Origin: a virus
Strand: one strand, 5' to 3'
DNA length: 64,000 bases
Virus record (IMG/VR): IMGVR_UViG_3300044634_004833
Location: 90,942 to 154,941 of that record
The notes under the pieces are model-generated. The model worked only from the letters and a program-made list of their open reading frames with translations. It was not told the origin of the DNA and made no database searches. Shown piece by piece: positions 3,428 through 48,634 of this stretch (the first letter of the stretch is position 1; each line of letters opens with the position of its first letter). Position numbers and translations under genes: made by a program.

Positions 3428-6298
3428 ATGAAGAATTTAGAGGGTTGCACATTCATCGAATGGCTCAAAATTGATGAAAACATGGTTTTTATGACAGAAG
3501 CAGAAGATACTAATCCAAAAGATACTGATCCAAAAGATACTGATCCAAAAGATACTGATCCAAACGCTAAAGGTGAAATTGCTACCGATCCAAAAGCAGG
3601 ACATACTTTATTTGTTGTTCAAAATAAAAATACGGGCAAAATTTATGCTGCAAGACCATTTTTTCCAATTGGAACAAGTAATATTTCTTTTGGAGAAAAA
3701 ACTATAAACTTCCAAAAAGGTAAGATTTCTTTTGTTCTTAAAATTGAAGAATTTAAAAAAGAATATCAATTTATGGCAGAAAAAAGCGCTCCAAACAAAC
3801 CAATAAAATTCAGTTCAAGGAAAGGTTTTATATATGATGCTGTTAATCCAATTTTTGACGGATTCATATATCCTGCGAGATTTTGCAGGATGGAATTAGT
3901 TCCCGTTATTGACGGTAAGCAGACAGCAGCAAATACTACAAACATTCCTGTTGTAGACACAACTGGATACAATCCTTGCAAAGATAAAGAAGAAGCTCCC
4001 AAACCTGGTACTGCTGGAGCTAGTGCTGCCGTTGCTAAACAACCAGAAAGCAATGATAAAAAATCTGGCGATCAAGCTGATGTAAAAGTACATGTAAATG
4101 AATTAGATGAAGATTGCAAAATGAAGCTTGGAGACCCTGAAAAGAAATTTGTTGATGAAGCTTTTTATAATGTTTTAAAATCTGGCAAGCGTGGAAATAT
4201 TGTTGTTAATGCTTTGGCAGGTTCTGGCAAAACTAGTACACTTGTTTGTCTCTGGGAAAAGTATGGAATGTATAGTGGTCAAAGATGGTTGTATTTAGTT
4301 TTTAATAAAAAAAATCAACTAGAAGCAGCAGAAAGATTTAGATCAGTTGACCAGAAAGAATTAACAAGTGCAAAAGGTGAAAAATATATTGTTAACAATG
4401 ATATTATCATTAAAACTACAAATAAGTTTTTAGGCGATGTATTGAAGCAAACCCCTGGATATCATGTTCCAAGAACTGAAAGAAGTGGCGATGCCTTTTT
4501 AGCTGGGCAAAAGTTTGATGATAAAGGAACCCCTTTGCCACTCAGAAAAAAATATGAACAAATAACAAAGATTGCAGTTGCACAAGATACAGTAGAATTT
4601 GACAATCTTGTAGAAGATTCCAGTTTGCCAAAATATGATGTTGTGAAAAACAAATTGTCATCTAATAGGGTAGACACTAGATATTCTGCTTTGGGCGGCA
4701 AAGGTTTGTCTTTTGTAAAAAGACAAAGGAAAGCTATTATCGAAGCATCGGAAAAACTTGCAAATTTATCAAAACAATTTGGGGCAGATCCATTTGATAA
4801 TAAAAAACTAGAAGAAAAATTAGATAACATTCTTGACAGATATGATATTTCTATAAACCTTAGTAAGGTTATGGAAGGTTGGTATGAAATTCCTAATAAT
4901 CGCTTTTTTTCTACGGAGTATAGGAATTTGTGGTACCACGTTAATTCTTTTATTGAAGATATTTCATTAAAAGAAAAATTAGATATTATTAAGCAGTTGG
5001 CAAAATGGCTATTAATAAAAACTGCTCCAGGCAATAAAGATTTAAATGATGCGCCACTTAAAAATGGTAAAAATATGTCGCAAATGGCAAAAACAAAACT
5101 TGGAGCAAAAATAGATTTCGATAAAGTAAGAGACTTTGACGACGACTACTGGTACTCTGGGATTAATATGGAAAAAATTAATTGGCCTAAGTATAATGTT
5201 GTTCTTGCCGATGAAATTCAAGATTTTAATTCTGTGCAAAAAGAGATGTTGAAAAAATTAGCGGAAAAAGGAGCTACTATTATAGGTGTTGGGGATCCCA
5301 ATCAAGCAATTTATAGATTCCGTGGTGCAGAAGCTAGTAGCTTTGATGATATTGTAGAAACATTGAAAAAAGATAATTTAAGTATCCAAGGAACAGATGA
5401 TATCATTAAAGGAATGCCTACAAATTACAGAAGCAGACAAGCAGTTATTGATTATGTAAATAAGGCAACAAAAGTAAATAACTTGGTTCGTGGCAAGAAG
5501 TACGAGGATGACTATCATGGGGAAGTTACAACTAACAAAAGCGTAAAGGATATGTTGTCTGAAATTCAGGGATATATCAAAAATGGGGAATTAGACAAAA
5601 GTACGGCAGTTATAGCTCGAACAAATGCTCCTTTGGGGGCTCTTATGGTTCCTATGTTAAAAAGAGGTATACCATTTGCAGCTATTGGTACTGATTTCAT
5701 TTCAGAAATTAAAAAAGAAATGCAAACAATATTAGATGATCTTGGTATTGATGAATATTATGATTTAAATTCAATACTTGGCGATTCAGAGGATAATCAA
5801 CCCAATTATGATGATGAAAATTCAGGCGAATACGGCACAAAAGGAGAGAATAGTCAATTAGAAAAATTTTACTTAAATAAAGTTAGACAATATCAAGGCA
5901 TTCCAAGTAAACAAAAAGTACTGAAAGAACTTAGAAAAAATATAGATACAATGGCGCAAGTTATCTATGCTGCTATGGAAGAGGATGACTCAATAAAAAA
6001 TATGAGTGGTGTATATGGCTGGCTTGAAGATAAATTCAAGAAGAATATTGTTGATGTCAAAAAATTGAAAAAATCAGATTTGAAAGATAAAGTAATTTTG
6101 ACAAGCGTTCACAAAAGTAAGGGGTTTGAATTTGGCAGAGTATATCTTTTAGATATTGAAAATTTCCCCCATGCAATGGCAACTAGAGATGAAGACAAAG
6201 AACAAGAAGAAAACGCCAAATATGTTGCCATGACCAGAGCAGAAGAAGAACTTCACATTCTAAAACAAAATCCAGACGAAAAATGGAAAGACATTTAA
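3428..6298 (+). CDS. SF1 UvrD/Rep-family DNA helicase with long N-terminal extension
   Basis: Motifs ALAGSGKTS, LVFNK, LADEIQD, VGDPNQAIYRFRGA, NYRS, IARTN, VHKSKGFEF, YVAMTRA; start set at ATG 3428 (GGAG upstream). Confidence 0.92.
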   Translation: MKNLEGCTFIEWLKIDENMVFMTEAEDTNPKDTDPKDTDPKDTDPNAKGEIATDPKAGHTLFVVQNKNTGKIYAARPFFPIGTSNISFGEKTINFQKGKISFVLKIEEFKKEYQFMAEKSAPNKPIKFSSRKGFIYDAVNPIFDGFIYPARFCRMELVPVIDGKQTAANTTNIPVVDTTGYNPCKDKEEAPKPGTAGASAAVAKQPESNDKKSGDQADVKVHVNELDEDCKMKLGDPEKKFVDEAFYNVLKSGKRGNIVVNALAGSGKTSTLVCLWEKYGMYSGQRWLYLVFNKKNQLEAAERFRSVDQKELTSAKGEKYIVNNDIIIKTTNKFLGDVLKQTPGYHVPRTERSGDAFLAGQKFDDKGTPLPLRKKYEQITKIAVAQDTVEFDNLVEDSSLPKYDVVKNKLSSNRVDTRYSALGGKGLSFVKRQRKAIIEASEKLANLSKQFGADPFDNKKLEEKLDNILDRYDISINLSKVMEGWYEIPNNRFFSTEYRNLWYHVNSFIEDISLKEKLDIIKQLAKWLLIKTAPGNKDLNDAPLKNGKNMSQMAKTKLGAKIDFDKVRDFDDDYWYSGINMEKINWPKYNVVLADEIQDFNSVQKEMLKKLAEKGATIIGVGDPNQAIYRFRGAEASSFDDIVETLKKDNLSIQGTDDIIKGMPTNYRSRQAVIDYVNKATKVNNLVRGKKYEDDYHGEVTTNKSVKDMLSEIQGYIKNGELDKSTAVIARTNAPLGALMVPMLKRGIPFAAIGTDFISEIKKEMQTILDDLGIDEYYDLNSILGDSEDNQPNYDDENSGEYGTKGENSQLEKFYLNKVRQYQGIPSKQKVLKELRKNIDTMAQVIYAAMEEDDSIKNMSGVYGWLEDKFKKNIVDVKKLKKSDLKDKVILTSVHKSKGFEFGRVYLLDIENFPHAMATRDEDKEQEENAKYVAMTRAEEELHILKQNPDEKWKDI
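3506..3565 (+). repeat. 4 x 15 bp in-frame tandem repeat (DT[ND]PK)
   Basis: GATACT(A/G)ATCCAAA(A/C) x4. Confidence 0.95.
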
Positions 6299-7047
6299 AG
6301 TTTGTGTTGGGCGAGGATTTGCTTAACTTGATTTAGTTTTGCAATCCATCCATTATAAACAGAAATCCAATGGTTTTGCCAACCATGTGATCCAGTATTC
6401 TTAGATGCTGGCTTATTTAAATAATATTTGTGTGTAAGTTTATCGTATTCCAAGCCTGATATAATGCTGTCAATATAATTGCTTGATATTTGTTTTTTGG
6501 CTAAGGTTTGTAGATTGCCTTTCATTATTTCTTGAAATTTTGTTTTAAGTATTTTATCTTTATCGAGCTCTTCTAATTGTTCTTTGCTGAATCTATTTGT
6601 TCCCTGTACATTATCATGTAACTTCTTGTCTTCTGCTGCTTGTTCAACTACTTCTTTTGTTTGAATTCTCATTACATCTTGAACTTCATTTGGAAACAAA
6701 GTTTTAAATGCATTGAATGTTTTGTTTTTCTTATCAATTTTTAAAATTTCTTGTTGAATTTTTGTTGCAGTGGCTTGGTCAACTGGTTCTGCATTAGCCT
6801 TTTTCTTTTTTCCTGCTGCTGCTAAAGGCGTTCTTTGTTGAATTGATAAATTTTGATTAGCAGATTGGTTTGTAGGTGTTCCACCACCTAATCCAGAAAT
6901 TGCTGCGCCAGCTAATCCTTTTGCTGCGCCACCTATTGCTGATAATACGTTTCCTATGAATTCATTTACTAAAGACTCTTCTTTAATTTGGCTAATTAGC
7001 TCAGAGTCTTTGGAATTTACATATTTTTCAAAAGATATCTTTTTCAT
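6295..7047 (-). CDS. hypothetical protein with capsid-targeting-like N-terminus
   Basis: MKKISFEKYV; TATAAATA at 7066-7073 on the minus strand. Confidence 0.75.
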   Translation of the reverse strand: MKKISFEKYVNSKDSELISQIKEESLVNEFIGNVLSAIGGAAKGLAGAAISGLGGGTPTNQSANQNLSIQQRTPLAAAGKKKKANAEPVDQATATKIQQEILKIDKKNKTFNAFKTLFPNEVQDVMRIQTKEVVEQAAEDKKLHDNVQGTNRFSKEQLEELDKDKILKTKFQEIMKGNLQTLAKKQISSNYIDSIISGLEYDKLTHKYYLNKPASKNTGSHGWQNHWISVYNGWIAKLNQVKQILAQHKL

Positions 7048-7099
7048 AATTGGTAGTCCTTATTTTATTTATAATTTTTGGTAGTTTTTTTTAAATGCT

Positions 7100-7109
7100 A
7101 CCCTATAAT
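7100..7109 (+). promoter_or_regulatory. class B promoter motif ACCCTATAAT
   Basis: Variant of the recurrent motif. Confidence 0.5.
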
Positions 7110-10112: not shown

Positions 10113-11471
10113 ATGGGGGATTTTATGACTATGATACTTGAATTTGCACAATGGTTAGATATAGACGAAGCTCGTCGTTTCAACATGGGTAGTGTTGGCA
10201 GTGCTGCCGAAGGCAGACAAGCCGGTAGAGATGCAAATGAAATAGTTACATGTATATTAAGTAAAAAACTTGGCACAAGAATTAGAGATTATCCTCCCAG
10301 ATCTACTCAAGATTTAGCTGGAATCGATGCAAAATTTTTGGATGGTGAATTTGCAAATCAAAACTTGCAAATTCAAGCAAGAGCATCTCATGCTGCCCAA
10401 GATGACTTTGCAATATCATTAGCCGTTAAAGAAAAAAATGTAGGCAAATTTCTAGGCAGCAAAATTACAGACATAATAAAGCCAAACCCTAATGCAGAAT
10501 ATTTGACAAAATGGCATCAAAAAACAGCCATTCATGCTTTAATGAGCGCTGATGACAATATGATTTATTTGGCCAAATGGGAAGATCTAGAATCGTTAGC
10601 CATGAAGGCATTTGAAAATTGGGAAAACAATCACAACAATATTATAGCCTTAACGATTTCGTTGCCAAAGCCTGCAAATCAAATGGCTGGAGCTTTAGTT
10701 CCACAAGGACATCAAGAAAAGGACCCAGATAAACTACAAGGCTCTATGAGCATTTCTTTAATAGCTAATGTCGATGGTAAAGACATAGAAGCAAATGCTG
10801 ATTTTAACATATCCTCAGATGTAGATTCCACAATTCAAAGTATAAAAAATGGTTTCGAAAATGTTTTAGGTGAAGGCAGTGTAATTTTCGTCAAGAAAGT
10901 ACCCATGCCTTTTAGACTTAGATATATTGTAAAATTTAAAGAAGGTATTGAAATTGATGGAGACCCAGTTTGGAACAGTATTAAATACGAAAATAATGAG
11001 CCAATTAGAGGACTAAGAATTTATTTCGAAGCTCCTCATGGCAAGTCAGGAACATTTAATACGGAAAGAGATACATTCGTTGATCCAGAAACACATATTA
11101 CTGTAAGATTGACTAGATCAACTCAAGGACCAGATTATAACCAGCAAACAGTTTATAATCCTATGGTGTTCATACCAGCCAAAAGCGTACCAACAAAACA
11201 AATTCCAATAACTCAAGAAGATATTGACCAATGTAAAGAAAAACCAGAAGTTGTAATTGATACTAGAAATGATATGGAAAAGGCTGAAGATGAAGCCAAT
11301 GAAAAAGGCCAAGGAACTGTTAAGATAATGTCTTCGAATCCTAAAAATATAAAAAGTAAACAAGAAGAGATTGAAAAATTTGCTAGAAGAAACAATCTAA
11401 ATGTTTCGTGGCCAGATAAAAAAGATGATAAAAATTTAGGGAATACTGCAATTTACACAAAAAAGGCATAA
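10113..11471 (+). CDS. hypothetical protein with capsid-targeting-like N-terminus; possible PD-(D/E)xK-like N-terminal domain
   Basis: LEFAQWLDIDE; DLAGIDAK..LQIQAR is only a weak nuclease-like pattern. Confidence 0.7.
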   Translation: MGDFMTMILEFAQWLDIDEARRFNMGSVGSAAEGRQAGRDANEIVTCILSKKLGTRIRDYPPRSTQDLAGIDAKFLDGEFANQNLQIQARASHAAQDDFAISLAVKEKNVGKFLGSKITDIIKPNPNAEYLTKWHQKTAIHALMSADDNMIYLAKWEDLESLAMKAFENWENNHNNIIALTISLPKPANQMAGALVPQGHQEKDPDKLQGSMSISLIANVDGKDIEANADFNISSDVDSTIQSIKNGFENVLGEGSVIFVKKVPMPFRLRYIVKFKEGIEIDGDPVWNSIKYENNEPIRGLRIYFEAPHGKSGTFNTERDTFVDPETHITVRLTRSTQGPDYNQQTVYNPMVFIPAKSVPTKQIPITQEDIDQCKEKPEVVIDTRNDMEKAEDEANEKGQGTVKIMSSNPKNIKSKQEEIEKFARRNNLNVSWPDKKDDKNLGNTAIYTKKA

Positions 11472-11472
11472 A

Positions 11473-12024
11473 ATGAAAAGTTTTTTAAAGTGGCTTAATG
11501 AAGAAAATGAAGGTTTGTCTTTTTCTTTTGATCCTATGAAAGCACAAAAGAGCAACGAGCCAAAGTTGAATCCAAGAGTAGAAGAAAAACTAAACAACGC
11601 AGTTTTGGCTCTTACTCCAACTATTCCCGGCGTTCCTTTTGGAAATCTAAAAAGAAGCCAATCATCTCAATACTCTGGCATGACTTATGAAACTAATCTT
11701 GATGATATTCTTAAAACATATGTTGATATGATTCATGATCTCAATAAAGATGTTAAGATGAAAACAGGAAAGCAAAGCCTATTATTAAATTATTTGAGTG
11801 CCAATACGCCAGAAGACTATATGAACAAAATTGAAAACAAAGTGGCTGAATTAGGAAAAGGATATCTACAAGCATTTCAAAGAATTCAAAAATATCATCA
11901 ACTATTTGTTGATATCAAAAATAAGTATGGAGATAAAGCCCCTCAAATTAAGGTGACGATCAGAAAGCATCGTCCAGAAGATGAGCCTTTTGTAGAACAA
12001 AAGAAAAATCCCAGTAGCTTTTAA
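11473..12024 (+). CDS. hypothetical protein with capsid-targeting-like N-terminus
   Basis: MKSFLKWLNEE. Confidence 0.75.
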   Translation: MKSFLKWLNEENEGLSFSFDPMKAQKSNEPKLNPRVEEKLNNAVLALTPTIPGVPFGNLKRSQSSQYSGMTYETNLDDILKTYVDMIHDLNKDVKMKTGKQSLLLNYLSANTPEDYMNKIENKVAELGKGYLQAFQRIQKYHQLFVDIKNKYGDKAPQIKVTIRKHRPEDEPFVEQKKNPSSF

Positions 12025-16935: not shown

Positions 16936-17670
16936 ATGCGTAGTTTATTTGATTTTTATGAAAGCAAAAAGTCTACTCTTGAGTACCATGAGACTCTTAA
17001 TCCAAAACTATGGATCGGAGAGAAGCTTAAACCTCAAATTAGACAAAAACTTCTTGAAATAGCTAATTTTTGGGCAGAGCATGCTTTAATTCCTGAAGAT
17101 GCAATACAGGATATAACATTGGTAGGCGGAAATGCCAATTTTAATTATACAGATTTGTCAGATGTTGATTTGCACCTCTTAATAGACAAATCAAAAATAG
17201 CAGAATGCGAAGATAAAATACTAGATGAATATCTAAAAGATAAAAAAGCTATATGGGGTCTTACTCATGACCTTCAGATTTATGGCATACCTGTAGAGAT
17301 ATATGCACAGGACATTTCTGAAAAGACAAGCAAAGACCAAGGGGTTTTTTCAGTAAAAAACAACAAATGGGTTAGCAAACCAACATATAAAAGAATTAAT
17401 ATAAACGATCCTATTATTCAAAAAAAAGCAAGATCTATAGAAAATGTTATTAATTATTTTATGCAAAATAAAGTAGATAATCTTCAATTGTTAAATAATT
17501 TTAAAGATAAAGTAAGAAACATGAGAGGCACTGCCATTAAAAGAGGTGGTGAATTTAGTGTTGAAAATTTAGCATTCAAAGAATTAAGAAATAAAGGTCT
17601 GCTTGATAAATTTACTAATTATATTGTAAGCATCGAAGATAAGAAACTTAGTTTGGGGGAAAATGATTAA
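16936..17670 (+). CDS. pol-beta-superfamily nucleotidyltransferase (T4-like phage family)
   Basis: LVGGNANFNY..SDVDLHL (G[GS]..DxD); third acidic residue in PVEIY. Confidence 0.8.
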   Translation: MRSLFDFYESKKSTLEYHETLNPKLWIGEKLKPQIRQKLLEIANFWAEHALIPEDAIQDITLVGGNANFNYTDLSDVDLHLLIDKSKIAECEDKILDEYLKDKKAIWGLTHDLQIYGIPVEIYAQDISEKTSKDQGVFSVKNNKWVSKPTYKRININDPIIQKKARSIENVINYFMQNKVDNLQLLNNFKDKVRNMRGTAIKRGGEFSVENLAFKELRNKGLLDKFTNYIVSIEDKKLSLGEND

Positions 17671-17902
17671 ATTCAATGATTGGATACACACAAGAGAATC
17701 AAGTGCCTCGACCAGAAACAAATGGATGGCTGCTTTAGGTCTTCAGCCAATGTATTCAGCAGATGTGTTTGGACATGCAACTCCAAGACCTTGGGTTGCA
17801 GAAAAACTACTTAAAAATTTAAAGAAGAAAAAGAAGAAGAAGAAGAAGAAATCTAAACACAAAAAGCACAAAACCTTTAAGGAGTTTTTGGAAAACAAAT
17901 AG
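17663..17902 (+). CDS. small poly-Lys protein with targeting-like motifs at both ends
   Basis: MIKFNDWI...K10 run...KTFKEFLENK. Confidence 0.65.
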   Translation: MIKFNDWIHTRESSASTRNKWMAALGLQPMYSADVFGHATPRPWVAEKLLKNLKKKKKKKKKKSKHKKHKTFKEFLENK

Positions 17903-18277: not shown

Positions 18278-18520
18278 TTAGTCTTTTCTAATGCCTTGTA
18301 CTTTTGGATTGGAATCCATTTTTTTTATTATGTTCAAAGCTTTCCAAGGAGCCTTTTTGGAAAGATTCTTTAACCTAACATGGTCTTTAGCATCAATTGT
18401 ATAAGTATAAAGTCTATCCCCTATGTAAACCATTACACGGCCATCGCTGAACCAGCCAGCATATTTAATTTGTTTTTCATCGGCTTCAAAAAGCCATTGT
18501 TTAAATTGTAATTGACTCAT
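18278..18520 (-). CDS. small protein with capsid-targeting-like N-terminus
   Basis: MSQLQFKQWLFEA; AATATATA 5 nt upstream. Confidence 0.7.
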   Translation of the reverse strand: MSQLQFKQWLFEADEKQIKYAGWFSDGRVMVYIGDRLYTYTIDAKDHVRLKNLSKKAPWKALNIIKKMDSNPKVQGIRKD

Positions 18521-34803: not shown

Positions 34804-35142
34804 ATGAACAAAGCTATATTTAATTTACAAGAATGCACGATACGAATTGAAAAAGGATTAATTATTATACAATCAACAAAGCCTCTCTCACACGTCCCAG
34901 AAGAATTTTATCCCTTTGATATTATTGAAGATAAAAACATTGATGATTTAATCAGACAAATTGTCGGAAAAGAACCACAAGGCACTCTTAAAGATCTACC
35001 TAAGTTAACAACCGATGATAAATTTTGGTTTATGTCAGATGAAGAACTATTAAAAGTGTTTGAAGAAGATATTCAATATAAAAAATATTATAAACAACCT
35101 ACAAAATTTCCAAACTTTAGTGTTATTGCGCCAAAAGACTAA
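34804..35142 (+). CDS. hypothetical protein
   Basis: SD AGGAG. Confidence 0.65.
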   Translation: MNKAIFNLQECTIRIEKGLIIIQSTKPLSHVPEEFYPFDIIEDKNIDDLIRQIVGKEPQGTLKDLPKLTTDDKFWFMSDEELLKVFEEDIQYKKYYKQPTKFPNFSVIAPKD

Positions 35143-37202
35143 AAGCCACGCAAAGCTTTTTGCTTGAGTTTGTTGAATTCATTCGGCAAATCTTTTCTCA
35201 AAATTTGCACGAATTTTTCCAACGATTTAAATGCTGCCATAGAATCAAAACCTTCTCGATCAGTCTGAGGATGCAAATCAAACTGTAATTCTAATTCAAT
35301 TTTTATTTCAGGTAACCTAGCTTTTGGATTTTTACTATAATCCTCATAATATTTTTTAATTAGAGGGCTATTAGTTTTTAGTTCAGCTATGTCAAGGTTT
35401 ACATCAAACTTCATGTTTGGAAATTGTGTTGCATCATTCCTTGCTAATTCAAGTTTTTCTTCAACTAAGATAGTCATTTCGCTTTTAAGTGTCTCTCCAG
35501 AATTATCAAACTTTATATTTCTGTAAAATAAGTCTTCTTGAGTACCAAAAATATTAGATGGAACAGAAAATCCGCCTTGTTTATTTACTAAACCATATAA
35601 ATCACCAACTAAAATTGGTGGAACTTCTACTTTGAAAGCATCATTATAAGCAGAACCATAGCCAGAACGCCCTGCATTTCTAGTAGAACGACTATGTCTT
35701 ACTTTAATGTCCGCAGATTTCTGAATAATACTTTTTGATTCTATTATATCAGCACTTTCCAAAGCTTTTAATAAGATGTCTGGAACCTTTTCAATATCTC
35801 TGTCAAAAATATCCATTGCATCAAAAAATCGTTCAGCTTCCTGCAAGTCAGCAGTTTGATCATCTGGCCTACCTTTTCTAAAAGATAATTTGAAACAAAG
35901 AGATTCATGCTCAATTGTTAATGCAAATCTCTCTCTCATAGGAGACAAATTATTCATGCTTCTATAATCTAAAAGATTATTTAATATTTGATCTAATTCA
36001 TCCATTTTATCAACCAAATAATTATTAGGCACATTCTCAGACAAAATGGGGAAATCACTTGCTGGTATTAGTAATTTAATTGAATTTAGTGGAAAACAAT
36101 GCTGATAATTAACAGTAAGTTTTTCCACAAATTCATTTGGCAATTCAGTAGAAGGCACTATTATGAGTTGTAATTTGTAGCTAAGATTATGATCTTCCCA
36201 GTTTCCCCTTATTCTGTTTGCTAATTCTTGTTGCGACATAGTACTGATAGCAACATCTGACTGATCATTTGTTTCATCTGTATCCTCACCCCTAACTTTA
36301 CCTACAAGGTCAAAAGAAGGAATATTAAAATATTTGGAAAGTATGTTTTCACTACTAGAGTCTGAAACTCCTCCATGTAATGTAACTTTACTCAAATTTT
36401 TATCAAAATCACCAACATCATGATTATTTTCTGTAGCCCAAGACCTCATAACATTATAATACTTGTCATTCACATGAGAACCACTCTTCTCTCTTAAATA
36501 TACTTTTGTTTCTGGAACTAATATCTTTTTGTCATTTACAGTAAAACTACGCAGACGAATTCTTTCTATTGGCTTAATTCCTCTTACTCCACGACATTTG
36601 TCCTCAAAAATTTCATCTGCATCTAAATCCACTCCTTCTAAATCGTCTGTATTAACCAAATATGAAACAATTCCACCAGTCCTAGCTTCAGATTGTGCAG
36701 ATTTCCAATAACCTCTATTGGGGGAATGACAACTTGATGAATCTTCAAAATCAGACATCCTTACAATGTCTATTGGCTTTCTACTTATTACGACACTCTC
36801 TGGCAATTTATCAGGCTTTGGAACCTCTTGCCCTGTTTCAAATATTCTCAGTAATTGTTTGTAGTCTTGGTTATTAGGGCTTTTGTTTATCAAATTCTGC
36901 AAAAATCTACCTAGTTTAATAACTTGGTCTTTTTCACCTTGTTGTGTTACTGTTTTTTGAGTGACTTTCTTGTTGGCCCAATCAATCTTAACATTATCCT
37001 GATTTTCAATTTGCTTCAGTATGTCCTTGTCTTTACCATATGGTATGACAATTCTATCTTTATTGCCAAATATATGATTGAAACGCAGGTTTTCTGGGTA
37101 TTCTTTTAAACCTTTTTCAAAGTTTTTCCAATTGTCAGCTTCTCTCGCATCAATTTCACTCAATAAAAACCATTCTCTGAATGTTAAATTATCTTTTTGC
37201 AT
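35139..37202 (-). CDS. large protein with capsid-targeting-like N-terminus
   Basis: LTFREWFLLSE; ISRKPIDIVRMSD..SC block. Confidence 0.8.
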   Translation of the reverse strand: MQKDNLTFREWFLLSEIDAREADNWKNFEKGLKEYPENLRFNHIFGNKDRIVIPYGKDKDILKQIENQDNVKIDWANKKVTQKTVTQQGEKDQVIKLGRFLQNLINKSPNNQDYKQLLRIFETGQEVPKPDKLPESVVISRKPIDIVRMSDFEDSSSCHSPNRGYWKSAQSEARTGGIVSYLVNTDDLEGVDLDADEIFEDKCRGVRGIKPIERIRLRSFTVNDKKILVPETKVYLREKSGSHVNDKYYNVMRSWATENNHDVGDFDKNLSKVTLHGGVSDSSSENILSKYFNIPSFDLVGKVRGEDTDETNDQSDVAISTMSQQELANRIRGNWEDHNLSYKLQLIIVPSTELPNEFVEKLTVNYQHCFPLNSIKLLIPASDFPILSENVPNNYLVDKMDELDQILNNLLDYRSMNNLSPMRERFALTIEHESLCFKLSFRKGRPDDQTADLQEAERFFDAMDIFDRDIEKVPDILLKALESADIIESKSIIQKSADIKVRHSRSTRNAGRSGYGSAYNDAFKVEVPPILVGDLYGLVNKQGGFSVPSNIFGTQEDLFYRNIKFDNSGETLKSEMTILVEEKLELARNDATQFPNMKFDVNLDIAELKTNSPLIKKYYEDYSKNPKARLPEIKIELELQFDLHPQTDREGFDSMAAFKSLEKFVQILRKDLPNEFNKLKQKALRGF

Positions 37203-37234: not shown

Positions 37235-37573
37235 ATGCAAACTTTTAACGAATGGGTTAAGACTAAAAAAGAATCTTTCGAACCCGAACATTGGTTGGCC
37301 GACACAGGAGCAGAAGCTAAGCCAAGAGGAGATTCCCACCCAGCTAAAGGTGGTTGGCTAAAACCTAAAATACAAGTATTAGACGATACACTCATTATTA
37401 AAAAACCAAAGTTTGCTAAAGCAGATATTGCTAAAATGGCAGAAGAATGGACTAAGAAGTTAAAAGATATAGGACATATAGTAGAATTAGAAAATAAACC
37501 AGACGAATCAATACTAAAATTCTATAACAATGAAAAAGCCCAAAGAGCTTTCCATTTTATTAATAAACTTTAA
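37235..37573 (+). CDS. small protein with capsid-targeting-like N-terminus
   Basis: MQTFNEWVKTKKES. Confidence 0.75.
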   Translation: MQTFNEWVKTKKESFEPEHWLADTGAEAKPRGDSHPAKGGWLKPKIQVLDDTLIIKKPKFAKADIAKMAEEWTKKLKDIGHIVELENKPDESILKFYNNEKAQRAFHFINKL

Positions 37574-37574: not shown

Positions 37575-38780
37575 CTATTTAACTGATCCCATATATCTAT
37601 TTGCTGTCTCTTTGCCAATTTTATTTATGAAATCTATTGTTTGGTTTAAAAACTCTTTTGATACTTGTTTTTTTACGTCTGAGTCACTTATCATTTTCCT
37701 CACATTAGCCTTATCAATAGCCTTCTTTTTTGCATTGAACTTACTTTGGTTTATATCAAGCCCCGCAGTGCCTGCTGCAAATACAATTCCACTTGCTACA
37801 GAAGTACCAACTGCAACAAATGATCCGGTTAAAAGTAAAATTCCGAATCCGGAAACCATTGACACGCCTCCTCCTATTACTGCTGCAAGCATCCATCTAT
37901 CAAAATTTGCCTTATTTTTTATTAGTTCCGGCATTTTGCCACTTGTTTTCAACTTGTTTGCTTGAGCTTTCACAGCCTGCTCTATAGCTTCTTTAGTCCC
38001 TCTGCTTTTAAATTTTTCTGCTGCTTTGTTCAACAAATCCTTATATTCATTAGGAGGAAGATCACTTATTCTCTCCACCTCTGCTTGCAATTTAGCACTA
38101 TTTTTATATGCTTCTCCAAGCTTTGAATTTTGAATTATTTTTATAAACTGACTTAAATCTAAACTACCATCTGCACTACCATCTGCTAATCTTTCCACTT
38201 TTTTGTACTGAGGAACTTTCATTACAATATCTTTGTATCCAGAATTTATAGCAAACCACGTCTTTGCACTTTTTAAAGCAGGGTCTTTTTCAATTAAAAA
38301 TGTATGAATCCAATCTTCCCAAATCTTTTTAGCAACCATATACATTTGTTGAGCATATGCTCCTAAAGAATATCTTTGATCAGCTTCATTAAAATTCATA
38401 GGAGGAGGAGATGGAGCTTTATTAGCTTTAGAAATAAGTTTATTCATCCAATTATTATATCTATTTTTTAATTCTTCATGATATTTTTCTAAAGTAATTG
38501 CAGCTCTATTAAACGCATCGCTATCCTTATTTTTATATGCATTTAAAGTTTTGCCTATCATTCTTGTAATTTTTAGGTCTAATTCTTTTAAGAAATTATC
38601 GCCAGCCTTAGTTAATATTTCTTTATCTACTTCTGGAGTAGTTTCCAAATCAAAATCATCCAGATCAGAACTAGGACCGGGGGTTTTTGTAGGTTGAAAG
38701 GGACTACCAGGCTTTGGACCACCAGGCCTTGGACTACCTTTGCCAGTATTTTCATTTAACCATTTGCTAAATTCTAACAT
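37575..38780 (-). CDS. membrane protein with capsid-targeting-like N-terminus
   Basis: MLEFSKWLNE; Gly-rich hydrophobic hairpin near the C-terminus. Confidence 0.8.
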   Translation of the reverse strand: MLEFSKWLNENTGKGSPRPGGPKPGSPFQPTKTPGPSSDLDDFDLETTPEVDKEILTKAGDNFLKELDLKITRMIGKTLNAYKNKDSDAFNRAAITLEKYHEELKNRYNNWMNKLISKANKAPSPPPMNFNEADQRYSLGAYAQQMYMVAKKIWEDWIHTFLIEKDPALKSAKTWFAINSGYKDIVMKVPQYKKVERLADGSADGSLDLSQFIKIIQNSKLGEAYKNSAKLQAEVERISDLPPNEYKDLLNKAAEKFKSRGTKEAIEQAVKAQANKLKTSGKMPELIKNKANFDRWMLAAVIGGGVSMVSGFGILLLTGSFVAVGTSVASGIVFAAGTAGLDINQSKFNAKKKAIDKANVRKMISDSDVKKQVSKEFLNQTIDFINKIGKETANRYMGSVK

Positions 38781-38866: not shown

Positions 38867-39670
38867 ATGCAAAAAATAATTTCTCTTTATCATGCAACAA
38901 CCAAACAATCTGCCGAATCTATATTAAAAACAAAGACTCTTAAGGCAGACAAAGAAAGACATGTATATGTTTCCAATTCTCCTACTATAACAAATGATTA
39001 TGGAGATGGCACACTACTCAAAGTATATGTTGATCCCAGAAAATTGGAGCTTGATGATGAGTTCCCCACGGGGAGAAGGGATTACAGACTTCCTTCCCCC
39101 TATAGACCAGAAAAAATAGAACTTGTTTTTTCATACAAAGAATGCTTTAATATTATTAGCCTAGGAGAAAAACCCATGAAAAGTTTCAACGAATATGTAA
39201 TTCTTAAAGAGAGTCGTGCGACTGTTGACATAAATGAGATTGCCAAAGATTTAAAATTTGTTCGTACTACGAAAAAGAAGCTAATGTACAAATATGTAGA
39301 TTCAGATCAGAATATGCCTCCTTTGTCTTATACTGTTGCTAAAAACCAGACTCTTCATACACCTCTAGATCAAAGCACTAGACAAGTAAAAGAAGGTGAT
39401 ATATTAATGAGTGGCCCCAAAGGAGAGGTATATAGTCCTTCTGCTAAAAAGTTCGCCACAGATTATGTCGGAGAGATCGGTAGTACAGTTCACCCAGAAC
39501 AATCAGAAAGGATAGTTGCCCAATATAATGGTGAGCCAATCACCTTTGTGCCAAGTTGGGGAGGAACTATGATTGCCGACCCAGGTGATTACATAGTAAA
39601 AGAAGGTGAAGGCAAATATTATAGAATCGAAAAAGAAGTTTTTGATATAACTTACAATCAAATTAATTAA
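38867..39670 (+). CDS. ADP-ribosyltransferase-like domain fused to a PGDYG-like domain (internal start 39176)
   Basis: LYHAT..A.SI, VYVS, YG; C-terminal GPKGEVY, DPGDYIV; internal AGGAG plus MKSFNEYV. Confidence 0.65.
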   Translation: MQKIISLYHATTKQSAESILKTKTLKADKERHVYVSNSPTITNDYGDGTLLKVYVDPRKLELDDEFPTGRRDYRLPSPYRPEKIELVFSYKECFNIISLGEKPMKSFNEYVILKESRATVDINEIAKDLKFVRTTKKKLMYKYVDSDQNMPPLSYTVAKNQTLHTPLDQSTRQVKEGDILMSGPKGEVYSPSAKKFATDYVGEIGSTVHPEQSERIVAQYNGEPITFVPSWGGTMIADPGDYIVKEGEGKYYRIEKEVFDITYNQIN

Positions 39671-40594
39671 ATGGTTTTTTATTACACATATTGGGAGTTT
39701 GAATATCTATATGGAAAAAATAGGTTTAGCCATCATGTGTTATTATTGTCGGCAACACTATTAATTCATGCTTATCCAAATTCAACTATTAATATTTTAG
39801 TATATGATTTTATTCCAAAATCTTTAGATATATTAAAATCTTTGCCACAAGTAAATATAATTTTATTAAAATGCTATGTTGATAAAAAACAAGAAGAAAA
39901 TCAATTATTAAATATAAATCTTACTAATGATAAAACTTTCACATTTCTATTGTCTAAGCCAATTGATGTTTTTAATTTGGCAAAAGAAAAAAATGAAATT
40001 TTTATATTACTTGATGTAGATTTTTTTGTTTTTAATAAATTTCAAAATTTAGATATTAACAAGATAGGATTTTTATTTTACAACAACAATTTAGATTCAA
40101 ATGTAAATACTGGTTTAATAGTTTCTGGAACACAATCTTTTGAATGTAAATACTTTTTCGATTTATATGAAAGTTTCCTAAAATTATTTGATAATCAAAA
40201 TCATTTAATTAAAGAAAAATTGGTATCTTTTGCTTATCCCCACCCATCAGCACAAGAAGAAATAATCATTTCAAGCATAGTTAAAAAATTTACAGAACTT
40301 AAAAACGTTGTTTTCTACGACATAACATCAAATAATCATCAATTGTATTGTTGTAACATTTATTTAAATTATCAAAATAATATTCATACAATGAATATGG
40401 ATAAAAAAAGAATATGTTCGGTTATGTGTCAATTAGAACATGTAAAGAAAGTTTTAAATAGAAAAGATTTTTATATAATAAAAAAAGAACTAATAGAATA
40501 CTCATACGAACAAGAGTTTAGTCAAGAAGAAAAAAGACTTATAAAAAACATAAATGATTCTATGCCTGTCAAAGATAAAAGAATCTTTCTATGA
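39671..40594 (+). CDS. GT-A glycosyltransferase-like protein
   Basis: LLDVD (DxD), VNTGLI, QEE; very AT-rich. Confidence 0.55.
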   Translation: MVFYYTYWEFEYLYGKNRFSHHVLLLSATLLIHAYPNSTINILVYDFIPKSLDILKSLPQVNIILLKCYVDKKQEENQLLNINLTNDKTFTFLLSKPIDVFNLAKEKNEIFILLDVDFFVFNKFQNLDINKIGFLFYNNNLDSNVNTGLIVSGTQSFECKYFFDLYESFLKLFDNQNHLIKEKLVSFAYPHPSAQEEIIISSIVKKFTELKNVVFYDITSNNHQLYCCNIYLNYQNNIHTMNMDKKRICSVMCQLEHVKKVLNRKDFYIIKKELIEYSYEQEFSQEEKRLIKNINDSMPVKDKRIFL

Positions 40595-40999
40595 TTCGCA
40601 TTCCCATTTGCTATATTTTTTCCCTCTGGAATTCCTTAGCATCTTTGGCTTGCACTTGCCAATATTGCAAGCATTAGCTTTGTTCCACCCATTTACACAA
40701 AGCTTAGCACAAGATGATACTCTTTCACTTGACTTGACATCAATACACTTGCCAATTAAATTAGAACGAGTTAATGGGTCTAAACCACTACTAGTCATTT
40801 TCTTTTCAAAAGAATCATAGCCAACATCGAAAGCACTTTTCATATACCCAGGAAGTGCTCTTCCCATATTAACAACATTGTCCAACGAAGATTGCATTCC
40901 CAATTCGTCAGCACCAGGTAGGCCAGTATACATAGATGCAACATTCCCAACTATATTTGCCAAACTTTCATTTTTATCCAACCATTCTTTAAAATTCAT
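40589..40999 (-). CDS. protein with capsid-targeting-like N-terminus and Cys-rich C-terminus
   Basis: MNFKEWLDKNES; TATATATA 4 nt upstream. Confidence 0.75.
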   Translation of the reverse strand: MNFKEWLDKNESLANIVGNVASMYTGLPGADELGMQSSLDNVVNMGRALPGYMKSAFDVGYDSFEKKMTSSGLDPLTRSNLIGKCIDVKSSERVSSCAKLCVNGWNKANACNIGKCKPKMLRNSRGKKYSKWECES

Positions 41000-43053: not shown

Positions 43054-44244
43054 ATGAAAAACTTTATAGAATTCTTGGCGGAAAAAGACCCTGCTCTATT
43101 ACAAGAATATATATATTTAGCTAGCCTATCAGAAAACTCATGGCATAAATACTTGCTTCCCTTAATGCTAGGAGCGCAGGCAACTGCTCAAGCAGGAACT
43201 CCTACAGAACTAAAACAAAGACAAGATTATAATCAAAGTCTTAAAGATCCACGAAATTCCAGAAACGAAAAAGAATTACATAGCCGAATGTTTACCCAAG
43301 GAATAACAGTCGATGACTTAGTTGGTCGCAAATTTAGTTGGTCAAAAACTGATAGAAATAAAGATACAATGACCAAACTAGACCGCCTAGATCTTCCTGA
43401 CGCTATGAGAAAAGGCATCCCAAGTGAACATGAAGAAGAATACAAACAAGAAGATATCTTGTTCAAAAAAGTAATAAATCCTTACGATTACATAAGATCG
43501 ACACAGCATGATAAAGAAAAATTTGACAGAGATTACCAGAAACTAAATACGGATAATCCTAATGACAAAGGATTTTCCACCTTTAAACATAAATTCAACA
43601 ACCAAGTATTAATGTATGTGGTGAAGGCAAATGCCCTTAGTAGAGTTGAACCTGGTGCATCTGGATATCATACTGTTACAATCAACCCAGATACTGGAAA
43701 AAAAATTGAGATGATAGTTCTGCCAGATACCGCCTTTAAGACATTGCCTTCTGGAAACTCCTTGGGCGAATTAACAGATGATGGAACGGCACTTTTAGCA
43801 CATGAGTTAAGACACGGCACACAACGAAGTGAAAATGTGCCAGTCGGCAAATATCAGACCGATAACTCAAACTATCATCATTATATGCACGACCCTATGG
43901 AAATTGGGGTCAGATTAGCGGCTACCAAGAATTTAATGTCTCCTGATACAATCTTGCGCTTGACTAAAAATTATCCTAAACACCAAGAAATTGCAAAAAA
44001 TATATTACAAAAAGCCAGCGAAAGCGAAAAAGAATTGATGAAGATGATTATGAATCCCGAAGGTGAAAACGCAAATACCTTGCATTTCATTAGAGATAGA
44101 TTAAAAGTTATTAATAAAGATGTAGATTCTCTCTTCCAATTTTACGATACGCTCAAGGGTGCTGAAAAAGCAAATTTTATGAAACAACTAATCGATAATT
44201 ATGATAATGTTGTAAAAAATAATACCAAAACATCCACTACTTAA
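43054..44244 (+). CDS. zincin-like metallopeptidase with capsid-targeting-like N-terminus
   Basis: MKNFIEFLAE; LAHELRHGTQ...Y...PME. Confidence 0.7.
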   Translation: MKNFIEFLAEKDPALLQEYIYLASLSENSWHKYLLPLMLGAQATAQAGTPTELKQRQDYNQSLKDPRNSRNEKELHSRMFTQGITVDDLVGRKFSWSKTDRNKDTMTKLDRLDLPDAMRKGIPSEHEEEYKQEDILFKKVINPYDYIRSTQHDKEKFDRDYQKLNTDNPNDKGFSTFKHKFNNQVLMYVVKANALSRVEPGASGYHTVTINPDTGKKIEMIVLPDTAFKTLPSGNSLGELTDDGTALLAHELRHGTQRSENVPVGKYQTDNSNYHHYMHDPMEIGVRLAATKNLMSPDTILRLTKNYPKHQEIAKNILQKASESEKELMKMIMNPEGENANTLHFIRDRLKVINKDVDSLFQFYDTLKGAEKANFMKQLIDNYDNVVKNNTKTSTT

Positions 44245-44287: not shown

Positions 44288-44292
44288 AAAAT

Positions 44293-45696
44293 ATGAAATT
44301 CAAATTATGGCTCATTGAAGCCGAATACAAAGATGTAAGAAATACTTACAAAGACTTGATGGATTACTTAGAAAAAACATCAGAAGAAGTATTCGTAAAC
44401 TTTAGCGATAGACCCAAAGGCTTGTTTGTTGCCAGCAAAAAAACCTCACACTATGACCCAATTGGGATTTACGGATTCGGCAAAGAATACATGCAAAGAA
44501 AAGATAATTCTAACCAAGGCTTCTGGAGCATGCCTTACATCACAGTATTTAAACTGAAGCCAGATGCTAATGTACTTGACTTAAGCACCATTACAGTTAA
44601 TACCGCCAAAGAAATGCTCCAAAAAATGGACATAGAAGATTATATCGATAAACCATACCACAGAAAACCAGCCAATAACTCCGGTGGAGCACTCCTATGG
44701 AATACTATGGAAAAATACATAGCCACCAATAGGTTACATAAAAATACCGCATGGAATACACTATTCAAAAAAATAGATGTAGATGCCGTTAGAGATACAA
44801 ATTCCATTATACACCACAATGAACCAGACCAAATCATAGTCCTAAACCCATCCAAAGCAGCAATCGTCAAAACAATAGAAAAACCACTCAATACTTGGCA
44901 GCAAAAAATACAAAAACAAATCTACGATTTGTTAACTGAATTGGGAAATAAATATCTTAAAGACTTCAAGATTACAAGCACCAGAAGAGGCTCAGCCGAT
45001 ATAACTAAAAATTATCCCAATTACGAACTTGCTGCCAAACCCGATATTTCAATGCTAGCCATTTCAAATAACCCAGAACTACCCTTGATCATTGAAATCT
45101 ATTACACCGCTTATAACGGCAAATTAACAGGACATATAAGCCGAAAAGCCCCTCTCGACCGCCTGTTCAGAACCGAAATAAAACCAGATCAATTGTCAAG
45201 TGACCAAATTAATGTTGTCGATGTAGATTTCCCCAACATGAAATCACAAATGATAGAAGCCCTTGATAAAATTATACAAGAATTTACTCCATCGCAAATG
45301 GGCGAAACTAAAAATATACACCAAAATATAATCGACCAACTAAACTTTGCTAACTTCAAAACAAAATATGAAAATGGAGATTATAACTCCATAGCACAAT
45401 TCAAAACAGGAAATTTCCCCGCCGCTCTTAAAGTCATCACCAGCCCTAGCGAAAATGGCGTAACCACTAACCTAAACTTATCCTACACCGCTAGAGATAT
45501 AAACTGGGGTAAAAATAGAAGATACAAAATTCCTTTCGAATCAATAACAATTAATTCCGATGAGGATGCCAAAGATATAAAGTCCAAATTTAAAACCAAA
45601 ATTAATACAATGATTGATAATATTCGTAATCATGAATTATCATATATGTATGACAATGACCTACATGCACTAAAAAATATGGAAAAATTATTGTAG
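44293..45696 (+). CDS. protein with capsid-targeting-like N-terminus; possible ART-like N-terminal domain
   Basis: MKFKLWLIEAE; DPIGIYGF...IHHNEPDQ. Confidence 0.65.
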   Translation: MKFKLWLIEAEYKDVRNTYKDLMDYLEKTSEEVFVNFSDRPKGLFVASKKTSHYDPIGIYGFGKEYMQRKDNSNQGFWSMPYITVFKLKPDANVLDLSTITVNTAKEMLQKMDIEDYIDKPYHRKPANNSGGALLWNTMEKYIATNRLHKNTAWNTLFKKIDVDAVRDTNSIIHHNEPDQIIVLNPSKAAIVKTIEKPLNTWQQKIQKQIYDLLTELGNKYLKDFKITSTRRGSADITKNYPNYELAAKPDISMLAISNNPELPLIIEIYYTAYNGKLTGHISRKAPLDRLFRTEIKPDQLSSDQINVVDVDFPNMKSQMIEALDKIIQEFTPSQMGETKNIHQNIIDQLNFANFKTKYENGDYNSIAQFKTGNFPAALKVITSPSENGVTTNLNLSYTARDINWGKNRRYKIPFESITINSDEDAKDIKSKFKTKINTMIDNIRNHELSYMYDNDLHALKNMEKLL

Positions 45697-45727
45697 GTGC
45701 CAGAACACGAGAAAAATAAGGACAAAT

Positions 45728-46273
45728 ATGAATAATTTTACCGAATGGCTTCAAATAAACGAAAACACAAATTGGGGACACGGTGGATGGAAAATTCATT
45801 TGCGAACAGGAACAGATAATAAAATTAGAGATCGAGCTTATCAAATAGTTCAAGAAATTATTAAAAATAATAAAAAAAATTGGCCTTCTAAAAAACTTGG
45901 TGGCGGCGAAGCCGATGAAAAAGATATTACCATTTATTGCGGACCTAAATCAGAAGCTAATCAAGCAGCTAAAGCAATATCAGAGCACCCCGAATTATCC
46001 AAATTACTTTCAAAACCAAGTGAAGAGATGTTGCGAGATGATGTAGAAATATTACCCGGCACAAATGTGTATGGAAGATTTAATGCTTCACTTTTAATGG
46101 CAATGACAAAAGGTGTTGAATTTCACCAATATGGATGCAAAGGTCATTCAATGCTAAATTCTTTTGTAACAAGATCTATGACAGATAAAGAAAACTTTGA
46201 TAGAACAAAAGCTTGCCAAGATTCCTACAGGCTTCTTAAAAACTTATTCGGCAAAGATTTTACAGACAATTAA
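45728..46273 (+). CDS. stand-alone phosphothreonine-lyase-like domain (OspF / LanL-LanKC N-terminal lyase family)
   Basis: GWKIH, K, KDITIY, D, YGRF in the order of the lyase motifs; N-terminal MNNFTEWLQINE. Confidence 0.65.
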   Translation: MNNFTEWLQINENTNWGHGGWKIHLRTGTDNKIRDRAYQIVQEIIKNNKKNWPSKKLGGGEADEKDITIYCGPKSEANQAAKAISEHPELSKLLSKPSEEMLRDDVEILPGTNVYGRFNASLLMAMTKGVEFHQYGCKGHSMLNSFVTRSMTDKENFDRTKACQDSYRLLKNLFGKDFTDN

Positions 46274-46317
46274 TCACCATAAATTGGAAATAAATTCTAA
46301 AAACACAAAGGTAGAAA

Positions 46318-48005: not shown

Positions 48006-48049
48006 TATATAACTTTGAATAAATTCCCTTGCCAAGATAAAATACCCAA

Positions 48050-48634
48050 ATGATAACATTCAAAGAATTCATGGAACTAAATCCACCCCTAAACCTAATA
48101 CTAGAAGACCTAGAACCACAAGAGTCTACCATAGTACAAAAACTAAAAACCATTGCCACAGATATTATAAATAATATAAAAACTTCCCTAAAAATACCAG
48201 ATCAAAAAACCCTAGACACCCAAGTACCCAAACTACTCAATAAACTCAAAAACAAATATAGCAAATACGCAAATGAAGACTATGATCTCTCCCTACTCTC
48301 AGGATTCAACTTCTTTAACCAAATAGATCACCTAAAAGAATTCTGGTCAAGTGTAGGAAAAGCTATACTAAAAGCTATAGTAGCTATAATCAAATGGCTA
48401 TTCACTAGCCTAGCTAACCTAATCAAAGCATCACTCAACATGATCAAAGATTCTTTCTCAGAAGAAGGATTCTTCAAACTATGTGTCGTATGGGTGGCCC
48501 CAGCCATCTTAGCCTCCCCAGTTCTAGGTCTACAAACTATCTACGGAATAAACAACCTCATAGGACTAACACCATTCATCGCTTGGGTCATATGGCATGT
48601 ATTCGTCGCTCCAGCATTAGATAAATTGGATTGA
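48050..48634 (+). CDS. membrane protein with capsid-targeting-like N-terminus
   Basis: MITFKEFME; C-terminal hydrophobic helices. Confidence 0.75.
   Translation: MITFKEFMELNPPLNLILEDLEPQESTIVQKLKTIATDIINNIKTSLKIPDQKTLDTQVPKLLNKLKNKYSKYANEDYDLSLLSGFNFFNQIDHLKEFWSSVGKAILKAIVAIIKWLFTSLANLIKASLNMIKDSFSEEGFFKLCVVWVAPAILASPVLGLQTIYGINNLIGLTPFIAWVIWHVFVAPALDKLD

Follow-up and report, generated by a model that had tools for sequence, protein, structure and literature searches.

In bacteriophage T4, a short N-terminal capsid-targeting sequence (CTS) carries the internal proteins IPI, IPII, and IPIII into the head (Mullaney and Black 1996; reviewed in PMC9026906 and PMC3012670). In the T4 genome (NC_000866), ipII and ipIII begin with MKTYQEFIAE, and ipI begins with MKTFKEFTS. 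According to PMC9026906, the first 10 residues of IPIII are enough for packaging. Residues 4 and 7 are the main determinants of targeting, and residues 8 and 10 govern processing; with Asp as residue 10, the protein is still loaded but no longer cut. The prohead proteases of T4 and of giant phages are described in PMC5694885 as all cleaving after Glu. Here, we consider a 64,000-nt stretch (“the window”; 31 to 41% G+C), bases 90942 to 154941 of the linear, 154,941-base IMG/VR record IMGVR_UViG_3300044634_004833 of an uncultured phage (G000), in which many different proteins begin with a peptide, or tag, resembling the T4 CTS. We estimate at about 0.7 the probability that this tag is a T4-type CTS that loads the proteins into the phage head.

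The original prediction held that about 18 otherwise unrelated open reading frames (ORFs) of the window carry such a peptide. At ORF starts in the window, the tag family follows the pattern M-x(1-7)-F-x-[EKDQ]-[WFY]-[LIVM]..E. A strict pattern (F-x-[EKDQRNST]-[WF]-[LIVMF] in a long ORF whose ATG lies no more than 10 codons before the match) recovered 13 ORFs, whose starts lie at 3428, 10113/10131, 11473, 17663, 18520 (minus strand), 28293 (minus), 37202 (minus), 37235, 38780 (minus), 40999 (minus), 43054, 45728, and 48050. Two more, at 44293 (MKFKLWLIE) and 7047 (minus; MKKISFEKYV), bring the number to 15; a 933–amino acid (aa) ORF straddling the left edge makes 16, and a doubtful variant at 16936 together with a nested start at 39176 makes 18, in agreement with the earlier count. 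All eleven start coordinates and peptides quoted in that prediction are correct ORF starts. No tag had been seen right of 50 kb, and neither the pattern nor the matrix scan described below gave an N-terminal match in the window past 48050.

Over the whole of G000, 26 strict N-terminal matches were found among 202 crude ORFs, compared to 1.4 expected from the interior rate of 41 internal matches in 46,799 residues (Poisson p 5e-24). Allowing several candidate starts per ORF raises this expectation few-fold at most. A chance origin of the tags is excluded. A profile scan, proposed earlier as a check, was made at every position of each G000 ORF with a position matrix derived from 72 tags, all taken from three other phages. 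It recovered the G000 set: 39 matches reached at least 8 bits, 27 of them no farther than 26 codons from the first start; the top nine were all N-terminal. In leave-one-genome-out scans, the rate of matches in G000 per 10,000 positions was 39.6 at N termini versus 1.4 in interiors, a ratio of 28; the ratios for the related phages G006, G026, and G025 were 9, 12, and 10. The tag consensus, M-x(1-2)-F-[KR]-E-[WFY]-[LIVM]-x(0-3)-E, spans ~10 to 15 residues and stands at the N terminus of ~29 G000 proteins, and about one G000 gene in eight is tagged; its F lies 2 to 8 residues past the Met in 28 of 28 G000 tags.

The common start does not stem from a paralogue family, which was ruled out as its source by the presence of one related pair among 29 proteins. 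When the first 20 residues of the 29 tagged proteins (8,382 aa) were cut off, blastp (E ≤ 1e-3) detected a single similar pair, the 933-aa and 843-aa proteins (37% identity over 381 aa), and no similarity for the other 27. The description of the proteins as otherwise unrelated is thus borne out.

Related phages carry the tag in similar numbers: ~31 in G006 and ~25 to 33 across the relatives, compared to ~26 to 29 in G000. The complete relative G025 (532,729 bp; CheckV 100%) has ~33 loose matches among 793 ORFs; set against 13% of ORFs in G000, this indicates an unusually high tag density in the latter. A degenerate DNA pattern for M-x-x-F-K-E-W-L-x-x-E matched 56 stretches in 2.9 million viral contigs, and in 41 of these an ORF 50 aa or more in length begins with the match. 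The densest cargo cluster seen lies on a 19.9-kb IMG/VR contig (L067), where 13 consecutive or near-consecutive tagged ORFs of 159 to 436 aa fall within 13 kb.

To compare the tag with the T4 CTS residue by residue, we counted 87 tags from G000, G006, and G026; the second aromatic and the aliphatic positions are set by the search pattern. The position equivalent to residue 4 is F in 82 of the 87 tags. Three residues past F, at the equivalent of residue 7, stand W (41 tags), F (24), or Y (22), followed at the residue-8 position by L, I, V, or M. The E6 position is most often occupied by Glu (35/87), and the first Glu past the core falls between F+5 and F+10 in 74 tags. An [LIVMF]-x-E site comes next in 49 of 87 tagged proteins versus 162 of 1,042 untagged N termini. 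Judged by sequence comparison, the conserved tag positions agree with the residues that experiments in T4 assign to targeting and, with looser spacing, with those assigned to processing; the likeness claimed in the original prediction extends to functionally mapped positions.

With T4 itself as a control, the near-consensus matches of the pattern were ipI, ipII, ipIII, and gp61.1, among 12 loose matches in 286 ORFs. Gene 61.1 (NC_000866, 18966 to 19130, minus strand; L281, 467 to 631) encodes a 54-aa hypothetical protein adjoining the primase gene. It begins with MKTFKEFIKE, a near-perfect CTS and the sole such match in T4 besides the three internal proteins.

The likeness to the T4 system goes beyond the core of aromatic-x-x-aromatic-aliphatic-x-Glu, as in MKTYQEFIAE of T4 and MKNFIEFLAE of the window ORF at 43054. 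In both cases, an N-terminal peptide of ~10 residues stands on unrelated basic proteins; the cargo is hypervariable and the tag conserved; and a gp23-type capsid protein, a gp21-type S77 protease, and T4-late-like promoters are found in the clade. The systems differ in that T4 has three such proteins (four with gp61.1) and the 155-kb G000 ~26 to 29, and in that the predicted huge-phage cargo reaches 956 aa and includes a helicase. Unlike in T4, W is favored at the second aromatic position, the Glu may lie anywhere from F+5 to F+10, and some proteins have a second copy near the C terminus. The tagged set is best read as CTS cargo that, in a widespread clade of huge uncultured phages, appears to have grown about ten-fold and to extend to large proteins.

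The peptide, rather than the DNA encoding it, is what is kept. Orthologue pairs retain the tag at 31 to 53% body identity and from 33% to 56% G+C. The 687-aa protein of G000 corresponds to a 651-aa protein of G006 (33% identity) that begins with MNFKNWLEQN, the 467-aa protein to a 428-aa protein that begins with MSFKTWLERSE, and a 153-aa protein to a 147-aa protein of G006 and an 83-aa protein of G026, with the tag retained. The G026 orthologue of the tagged helicase begins with MDTLTFKSWLTLTNE. The family of the 843-aa protein comprises at least 173 metagenomic proteins, and a tag, typically MNFKEWLILSEAID, starts 100 of the 120 listed. In G000 tags, F is encoded by TTT (17) or TTC (11) and Leu by TTA, CTT, CTA, CTC, or TTG, while in G026 (56% G+C) CTG dominates for Leu and Arg replaces Lys. 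Some tagged genes have a Shine-Dalgarno (SD) site rather than a fused promoter. Free synonymous variation, maintenance of the tag despite the G+C shift, and the SD-started genes together show selection on the peptide. The tag being portable, as had been proposed, is supported by its occurrence on unrelated proteins and its retention by orthologues.

These data bear on the idea that DNA shuffling spread the tag, a mobile late promoter/start cassette having carried along first codons whose peptide has no role or, in a variant, codons serving leaderless translation. The shuffling of modules by regulatory cassettes in T4-type phages, described in PMC2839356, lends this idea support. The T4 late promoter consensus is the basis on which we call certain hexamers late-type. 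When TAAATA, TATATA, TACATA, and TATAAA were counted 2 to 12 nt before the ATG, they were associated with tags at odds ratios of 3.4 in G000 (p 0.011), 8.9 in G006 (p 6e-8), and 13 in G026 (p 1e-7), where such A+T-rich words are rare. In many tagged genes, a hexamer stands 4 to 7 nt before the ATG, so that promoter and first codons are physically linked. However, late-promoter genes are often untagged (27 versus 10 tagged in G000), and about 8 of 26 tagged genes, read by eye, have an SD-like site or overlap the gene before them and lack a fused promoter. Together with the codon variation within the tag, its persistence across the G+C range and in diverged orthologues, and its presence in most listed members of the 843-aa family from many metagenomes, this makes shuffling a highly improbable explanation. 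A cause at the nucleotide level, whether a promoter or a leaderless-translation signal, was ruled out by the synonymous variation and the shift from 33% to 56% G+C. A check named in the original prediction, whether the motif is equally common on early and replication proteins, did not refute the reading: none of 13 genes behind the G000 promoter class CTGCGATAA-N14-YTAG carries a tag, and tags are enriched behind late-type promoters.

If the tag is a CTS, a T4-type head is expected in the clade. Nineteen tag-bearing viral records were tested with T4 as a positive control, which was matched. Seven of them (G006, G007, G008, G010, G012, G014, and G018; 100 to 323 kb, 20 to 64% complete) match both PF03420 (S77, E ~1e-28) and PF07068 (Gp23, E ~1e-86 to 1e-90). 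The complete G025 likewise has a gp23-type capsid protein and an S77 protease, which makes eight tag-bearing huge-phage records besides G026. In G006, portal, protease (S77, 1.9e-27), scaffold, and capsid protein (Gp23, 1.5e-89) genes follow one another in T4 order, with five small tagged genes within 6 kb of this head module. The head module of G026 contains a gp23-type capsid protein and an S77 protease at 1.9e-26. A small tagged protein of 114 to 134 aa is encoded divergently beside the portal gene in G006, G026, and G025.

Of 321 IMG/VR stretches that match the capsid protein, the best 80 (L147 to L226) show identities of 80% or more. The G+C content of those genomes ranges from 36% to 56%, and their other genes are 30 to 50% identical or unrelated; the capsid protein is unusually frozen.

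G000 itself has no capsid, portal, or protease gene, as assessed with a PF03420 search and a check of candidates among its ORFs, so its tie to a T4-type head goes via its relatives. With CheckV completeness at 31%, its genome is implied to be near 500 kb. PF03420 and PF07068 did not match five further relatives identified through DnaE (G001 to G005) either; since G000 to G005 are all fragments (5 to 34%), the missing S77 and gp23 genes are no sign of true absence. A link is provided by G026, a true relative of 343 kb and 56% G+C. It has 29 proteins in common with G000, and a single collinear block holds 21 of these; identities are 75% for PrkA, 67% for DUF444, and 48% for DnaE. G006 has 17 proteins in common with G000.

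PMC5694885 describes ejection and inner-head propeptides of phiKZ, 201phi2-1, and SPN3US that are cut by an S80 prohead protease after [S/A/G]-x-E and probably direct their proteins to the prohead. As in the tagged clade, these large phages pack many head proteins, some of them enzymes such as a virion RNA polymerase, and their processing C-terminal to Glu is carried out by a protease related to T4 gp21. Their propeptides, as presented there, are mostly longer than 100 residues with no short common tag, whereas the tag considered here has 10 to 15 residues and is common to all cargo, and the clade protease matches the PF03420 S77 model above its cut-off (the S80 model was not searched separately). 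The tags, being short and common and accompanied by an S77-matching protease, do not belong to this propeptide class. According to PMC5694885 and PMC9026906, T4 Alt, an ADP-ribosyltransferase (ART), is packaged, and gp21 processes both of its termini. Alt resembles the tagged cargo in being a large, head-packed, injected enzyme, and its two-end processing parallels the proteins with motifs at both ends, but no ART domain was found in the tagged proteins tested with Pfam and PHROGs. A more distant parallel is offered by the cargo-loading peptides of encapsulins, in which a short terminal peptide docks unrelated cargo inside an HK97-fold shell. Encapsulin peptides differ in that they usually stand at the C terminus, no protease removes them, and the shell is a cellular nanocompartment rather than a virion.

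By analogy with T4 IPI to IPIII, the two aromatic residues of the tag would dock a newly made protein on the scaffolding core of the prohead, and the shell would close around the docked cargo. The prohead protease would then cleave after the Glu past the aliphatic residue, leaving the mature protein free among the DNA, and at infection, the cargo would exit with the DNA. Among such cargo would be the UvrD-type helicase, a protein that may be an HExxH peptidase, two membrane-segment proteins, and numerous small basic proteins. Proteins with tags lacking a nearby Glu (~15%) would be loaded but remain uncut.

Several points weigh against a T4-type CTS. T4 cleavage follows the rule L/I-x-E, and a Glu at the exact T4 spacing (F+6) is present in only 13 of 87 tags, a looser arrangement than in T4; 13 of the 87 have no Glu between F+5 and F+10. 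Twelve of the 39 matrix matches lie inside or at the ends of proteins. A late hexamer stands directly before the ATG in only 10 of 26 tagged G000 genes, and reading the hexamers as probable late promoters leans on the T4 consensus. The gene counts are approximate because ORF calling was crude (longest-ORF, greedy), and a 956-aa helicase is a surprising cargo. The head of the G000 phage would be T4-type by extrapolation from G026 and others, and we are not aware of a cultured representative of this clade, nor of a cleavage site or a virion proteome for it; a look for RNA runs likewise listed none. Two non-huge phages without S77 or gp23, G013 and G016, carry few tags, with one clear case in 267 ORFs in one of them and two in 117 ORFs in the other. 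The same peptide on single proteins in these phages implies that the tag is not strictly tied to a T4-type head; the peptide is not exclusive to such heads, but families of tagged proteins are.

Some of these observations would be accounted for if the tag, which is short and amphipathic and stands at the N termini of unrelated proteins, were read by another partner: a chaperone or unfoldase of the phage, a factor in tail or baseplate assembly, or a receptor on a membrane or compartment. Tags without Glu, single tagged proteins in phages lacking a T4-type head, and C-terminal copies all agree with such a partner. C-terminal tag-like motifs occur in 10 of 202 G000 ORFs versus 2.6 expected; elsewhere, they are barely above expectation (9 versus 6.6 in G006, 9 versus 5.0 in G026, and 11 versus 10.5 in G025). 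ClpX reads N-terminal motifs, and a ClpX-type protein with zf-C4_ClpX and AAA_2 domains is encoded at contig positions 65604 to 66830, which makes a ClpX-like ATPase a candidate. Yet, G006, a phage with ~31 tags, matches this protein only weakly and in part (31% over 104 aa), and ClpX has no link to tagged genes. The agreement of the conserved positions with mapped CTS residues, the Glu in most tags, and the small tagged genes beside portal, protease, and capsid genes in three genomes also argue for the head rather than for another partner, which we consider unlikely.

The C-terminal motifs lie 10 to 20 residues before the stop, often on N-terminally tagged proteins, and read, for example, ...KTFKEFLENK-stop and ...PTFKEWLDINAL-stop. 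They were seen in window ORFs 17663 to 17902 and 16936 to 17670, at contig positions 89993 to 90517 just left of the window, and in proteins of G006 and G026.

The nature of the cargo bears on what loading would serve. The median isoelectric point (pI) of tagged proteins is 9.05 versus 6.97 for the rest (p 0.0014), and the T-even internal proteins are characterized as basic in PMC9026906. Hydrophobic, presumably membrane, segments are present in two tagged proteins (ORFs 37575 to 38780 and 48050 to 48634), a feature that PMC5694885 ascribes to many ejection proteins. The original prediction had assigned varied enzymes to the set. The helicase was confirmed: the protein encoded at 3428 to 6298 matches PF00580 (2.8e-19), PF13361 (1.3e-18), and phrog_1967 (8e-66). 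Among 16 tagged proteins searched against Pfam, it alone exceeded a family cut-off, with Peptidase_M78 for contig ORF 13827 to 15179 just below (21 bits; cut-off 22); among 10 searched against PHROGs, it was the only match apart from a weak one to a tape-measure protein (E 8.5e-4). The protease label was not supported beyond a HELRH motif visible in ORF 43054 to 44244, which no family matched; nor were the nucleotidyltransferase (NTase), lyase, and ART-like labels, for which the tagged proteins searched gave no Pfam or PHROG match above cut-off.

Further searches gave little. With phmmer, the 843-, 687-, and 933-aa proteins found nothing at E ≤ 0.1 among PDB sequences; the ESM Atlas had no usable match for the 687-aa protein, whose own model has a predicted local distance difference test (pLDDT) score of 0.36. 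The large, uncharacterized family of the 843-aa protein has a conserved domain of ~400 aa followed by helical repeats, and its profile matched only designed or helical-repeat proteins among PDB sequences, in the C-terminal part. The 843/933-aa family has the invariant core C-x3-GK-x3-WCI ... QxQYFxFD ... EWVDxxN, with no Pfam, PHROG, or PDB match, and variable tails of helical or ankyrin repeats; a single 271-kb NCBI contig carries four paralogues. When two tagged proteins of small marine contigs were compared by tblastn with 50,697 phage records, one had no match and the other matched through its C-terminal domain only, in podoviruses and cyanophages.

Loading into the head need not mean injection. 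The cargo might be mainly structural, part of the scaffolding core that is degraded or retained in the capsid, as the scarcity of recognizable enzyme domains and the conserved small tagged protein next to the portal gene in three genomes might suggest. This is difficult to reconcile with a full-length UvrD-type helicase that keeps its tag in G026, with membrane-segment proteins, or with a fast-evolving, multi-paralogue family whose helical or ankyrin repeat tails resemble host-interaction equipment. The T4 CTS by itself is enough to deliver foreign proteins into the host, as stated in PMC9026906. Overall, we regard a mainly structural role as improbable and infer that tagged proteins may be injected and may act as effectors.

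A broader proposal, which we advance tentatively and at somewhat less than even odds, is that in a clade of uncultured T4-headed phages of ~500 kb, one short CTS serves as a general loading code, so that a packaged and injected proteome of 25 to 35 or more proteins per genome could be read from sequence. A UvrD-type helicase, membrane-inserting proteins, and a multi-paralogue repeat family would belong to this proteome, C-terminal and nested copies would yield double-anchored or shortened cargo, and the three internal proteins of T4 would be a reduced remnant of an older, larger system. If the tag acts as in T4, the cargo packaged by uncultured huge phages is labeled as such in their own sequences; it would comprise proteins present in the host before phage gene expression, where anti-restriction and take-over functions are expected. 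The CTS would then be no T-even curiosity but a general cargo code of T4-type heads, scaled about ten-fold and extended to enzymes of nearly 1,000 residues. Because most tagged proteins are orphans, the tag would offer a first clue to the function of about a tenth of the genes. The tags could also supply new loading peptides for T4-based protein delivery. A search of full-text literature, with subscription journals and supplementary files outside its scope, returned, among the papers listed, T4 and SPN3US papers and none on a large CTS-tagged family in huge phages.

Individual tagged ORFs of the window are as follows, with matrix scores in bits. At the left edge, positions 1 to 2367 (plus strand) encode the C-terminal 788 codons of the 933-aa protein, whose ORF starts at contig position 90507, 434 nt left of the window, with the tag MHFKQFILLSE (10.0 bits); it is a paralogue of the 843-aa protein. 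The helicase ORF (3428 to 6298, plus; 956 aa, UvrD/REP-type) has the N terminus MKNLEGCTFIEWLKIDE (18.4 bits), with a TATAAATA motif 23 nt upstream followed by an SD site. A weaker tag, MKKISFEKYVNSKDSE (8.4 bits), precedes a Gly/Ala-rich stretch in the 250-aa protein encoded at 6295 to 7047 (minus). ORF 10113 to 11471 (plus; 452 aa) carries MGDFMTMILEFAQWLDIDE (14.0 bits), with alternative starts at 10125 and 10131 and TAAATA 4 nt ahead of the first ATG, and ORF 11473 to 12024 (plus; 183 aa) carries MKSFLKWLNEENE (13.3 bits). ORF 16936 to 17670 (plus; 244 aa) begins with the doubtful variant MRSLFDFYES, which fails the pattern, and has a tag-like motif, DKFTNYIVSIED, 20 residues before its end (8.5 bits). 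The 79-aa protein encoded at 17663 to 17902 (plus; 12.4 bits) is tagged at both ends, with MIKFNDWIHTRE at the N terminus and KTFKEFLENK before the stop. An 80-aa protein (18278 to 18520, minus) carries MSQLQFKQWLFEADE (17.0 bits), and the 843-aa protein (25762 to 28293, minus) carries MNITFKKWIKLWETLD, with TAAATA 9 nt upstream.

Farther right, the 687-aa protein (35139 to 37202, minus) begins with MQKDNLTFREWFLLSE (12.8 bits) and a 112-aa protein (37235 to 37573, plus) with MQTFNEWVKTKKE (12.0 bits), the latter with TAAATA 4 nt ahead of the ATG. In ORF 37575 to 38780 (minus; 401 aa), the tag MLEFSKWLNE is followed by a Pro/Gly-rich linker; the hydrophobic segment covers residues 296 to 340, and TAAATA lies 6 nt ahead of the ATG. 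ORF 38867 to 39670 has a TATAAATA motif 4 nt upstream of its own start and contains the nested candidate start at 39176 (39176 to 39670, plus), where AGGAG, 8 nt, and ATG precede MKSFNEYVILKE (15.8 bits); this in-frame start would yield a tagged 164-aa product and could reflect a nested tagged isoform or a junction in a cargo polyprotein. The top matrix match, MNFKEWLDKNE (21.1 bits), begins a 136-aa protein with a Cys-rich C terminus (40589 to 40999, minus). ORF 43054 to 44244 (plus; 396 aa, HExxH-containing) has the tag nearest to that of T4. TAAATA lies 5 nt ahead of its ATG and also 5 nt ahead of that of ORF 44293 to 45696 (plus; 467 aa), which begins with MKFKLWLIEAE (13.9 bits). A 181-aa protein with no Pfam or PHROG match (45728 to 46273, plus) carries MNNFTEWLQINE (16.6 bits), and the 194-aa protein encoded at 48050 to 48634 (plus) begins with MITFKEFME (18.6 bits) and has three hydrophobic segments in its C-terminal half.

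Outside the window, G000 encodes a split DnaE, a DEAD-box helicase, a PrkA kinase with DUF444, the ClpX-like ATPase, and giant RCC1-repeat proteins. The second part of DnaE has no match in the complete G025 and is present in G026 at 49% identity; replication modules thus seem to differ inside one capsid clade. Left of the window, an operon of the PrkA kinase, the DUF444 protein, and a 533-aa gene (contig positions 16020 to 21359; L002/L003) is 65 to 75% identical to its G026 counterpart, and these are by far the best-conserved genes common to the two phages.

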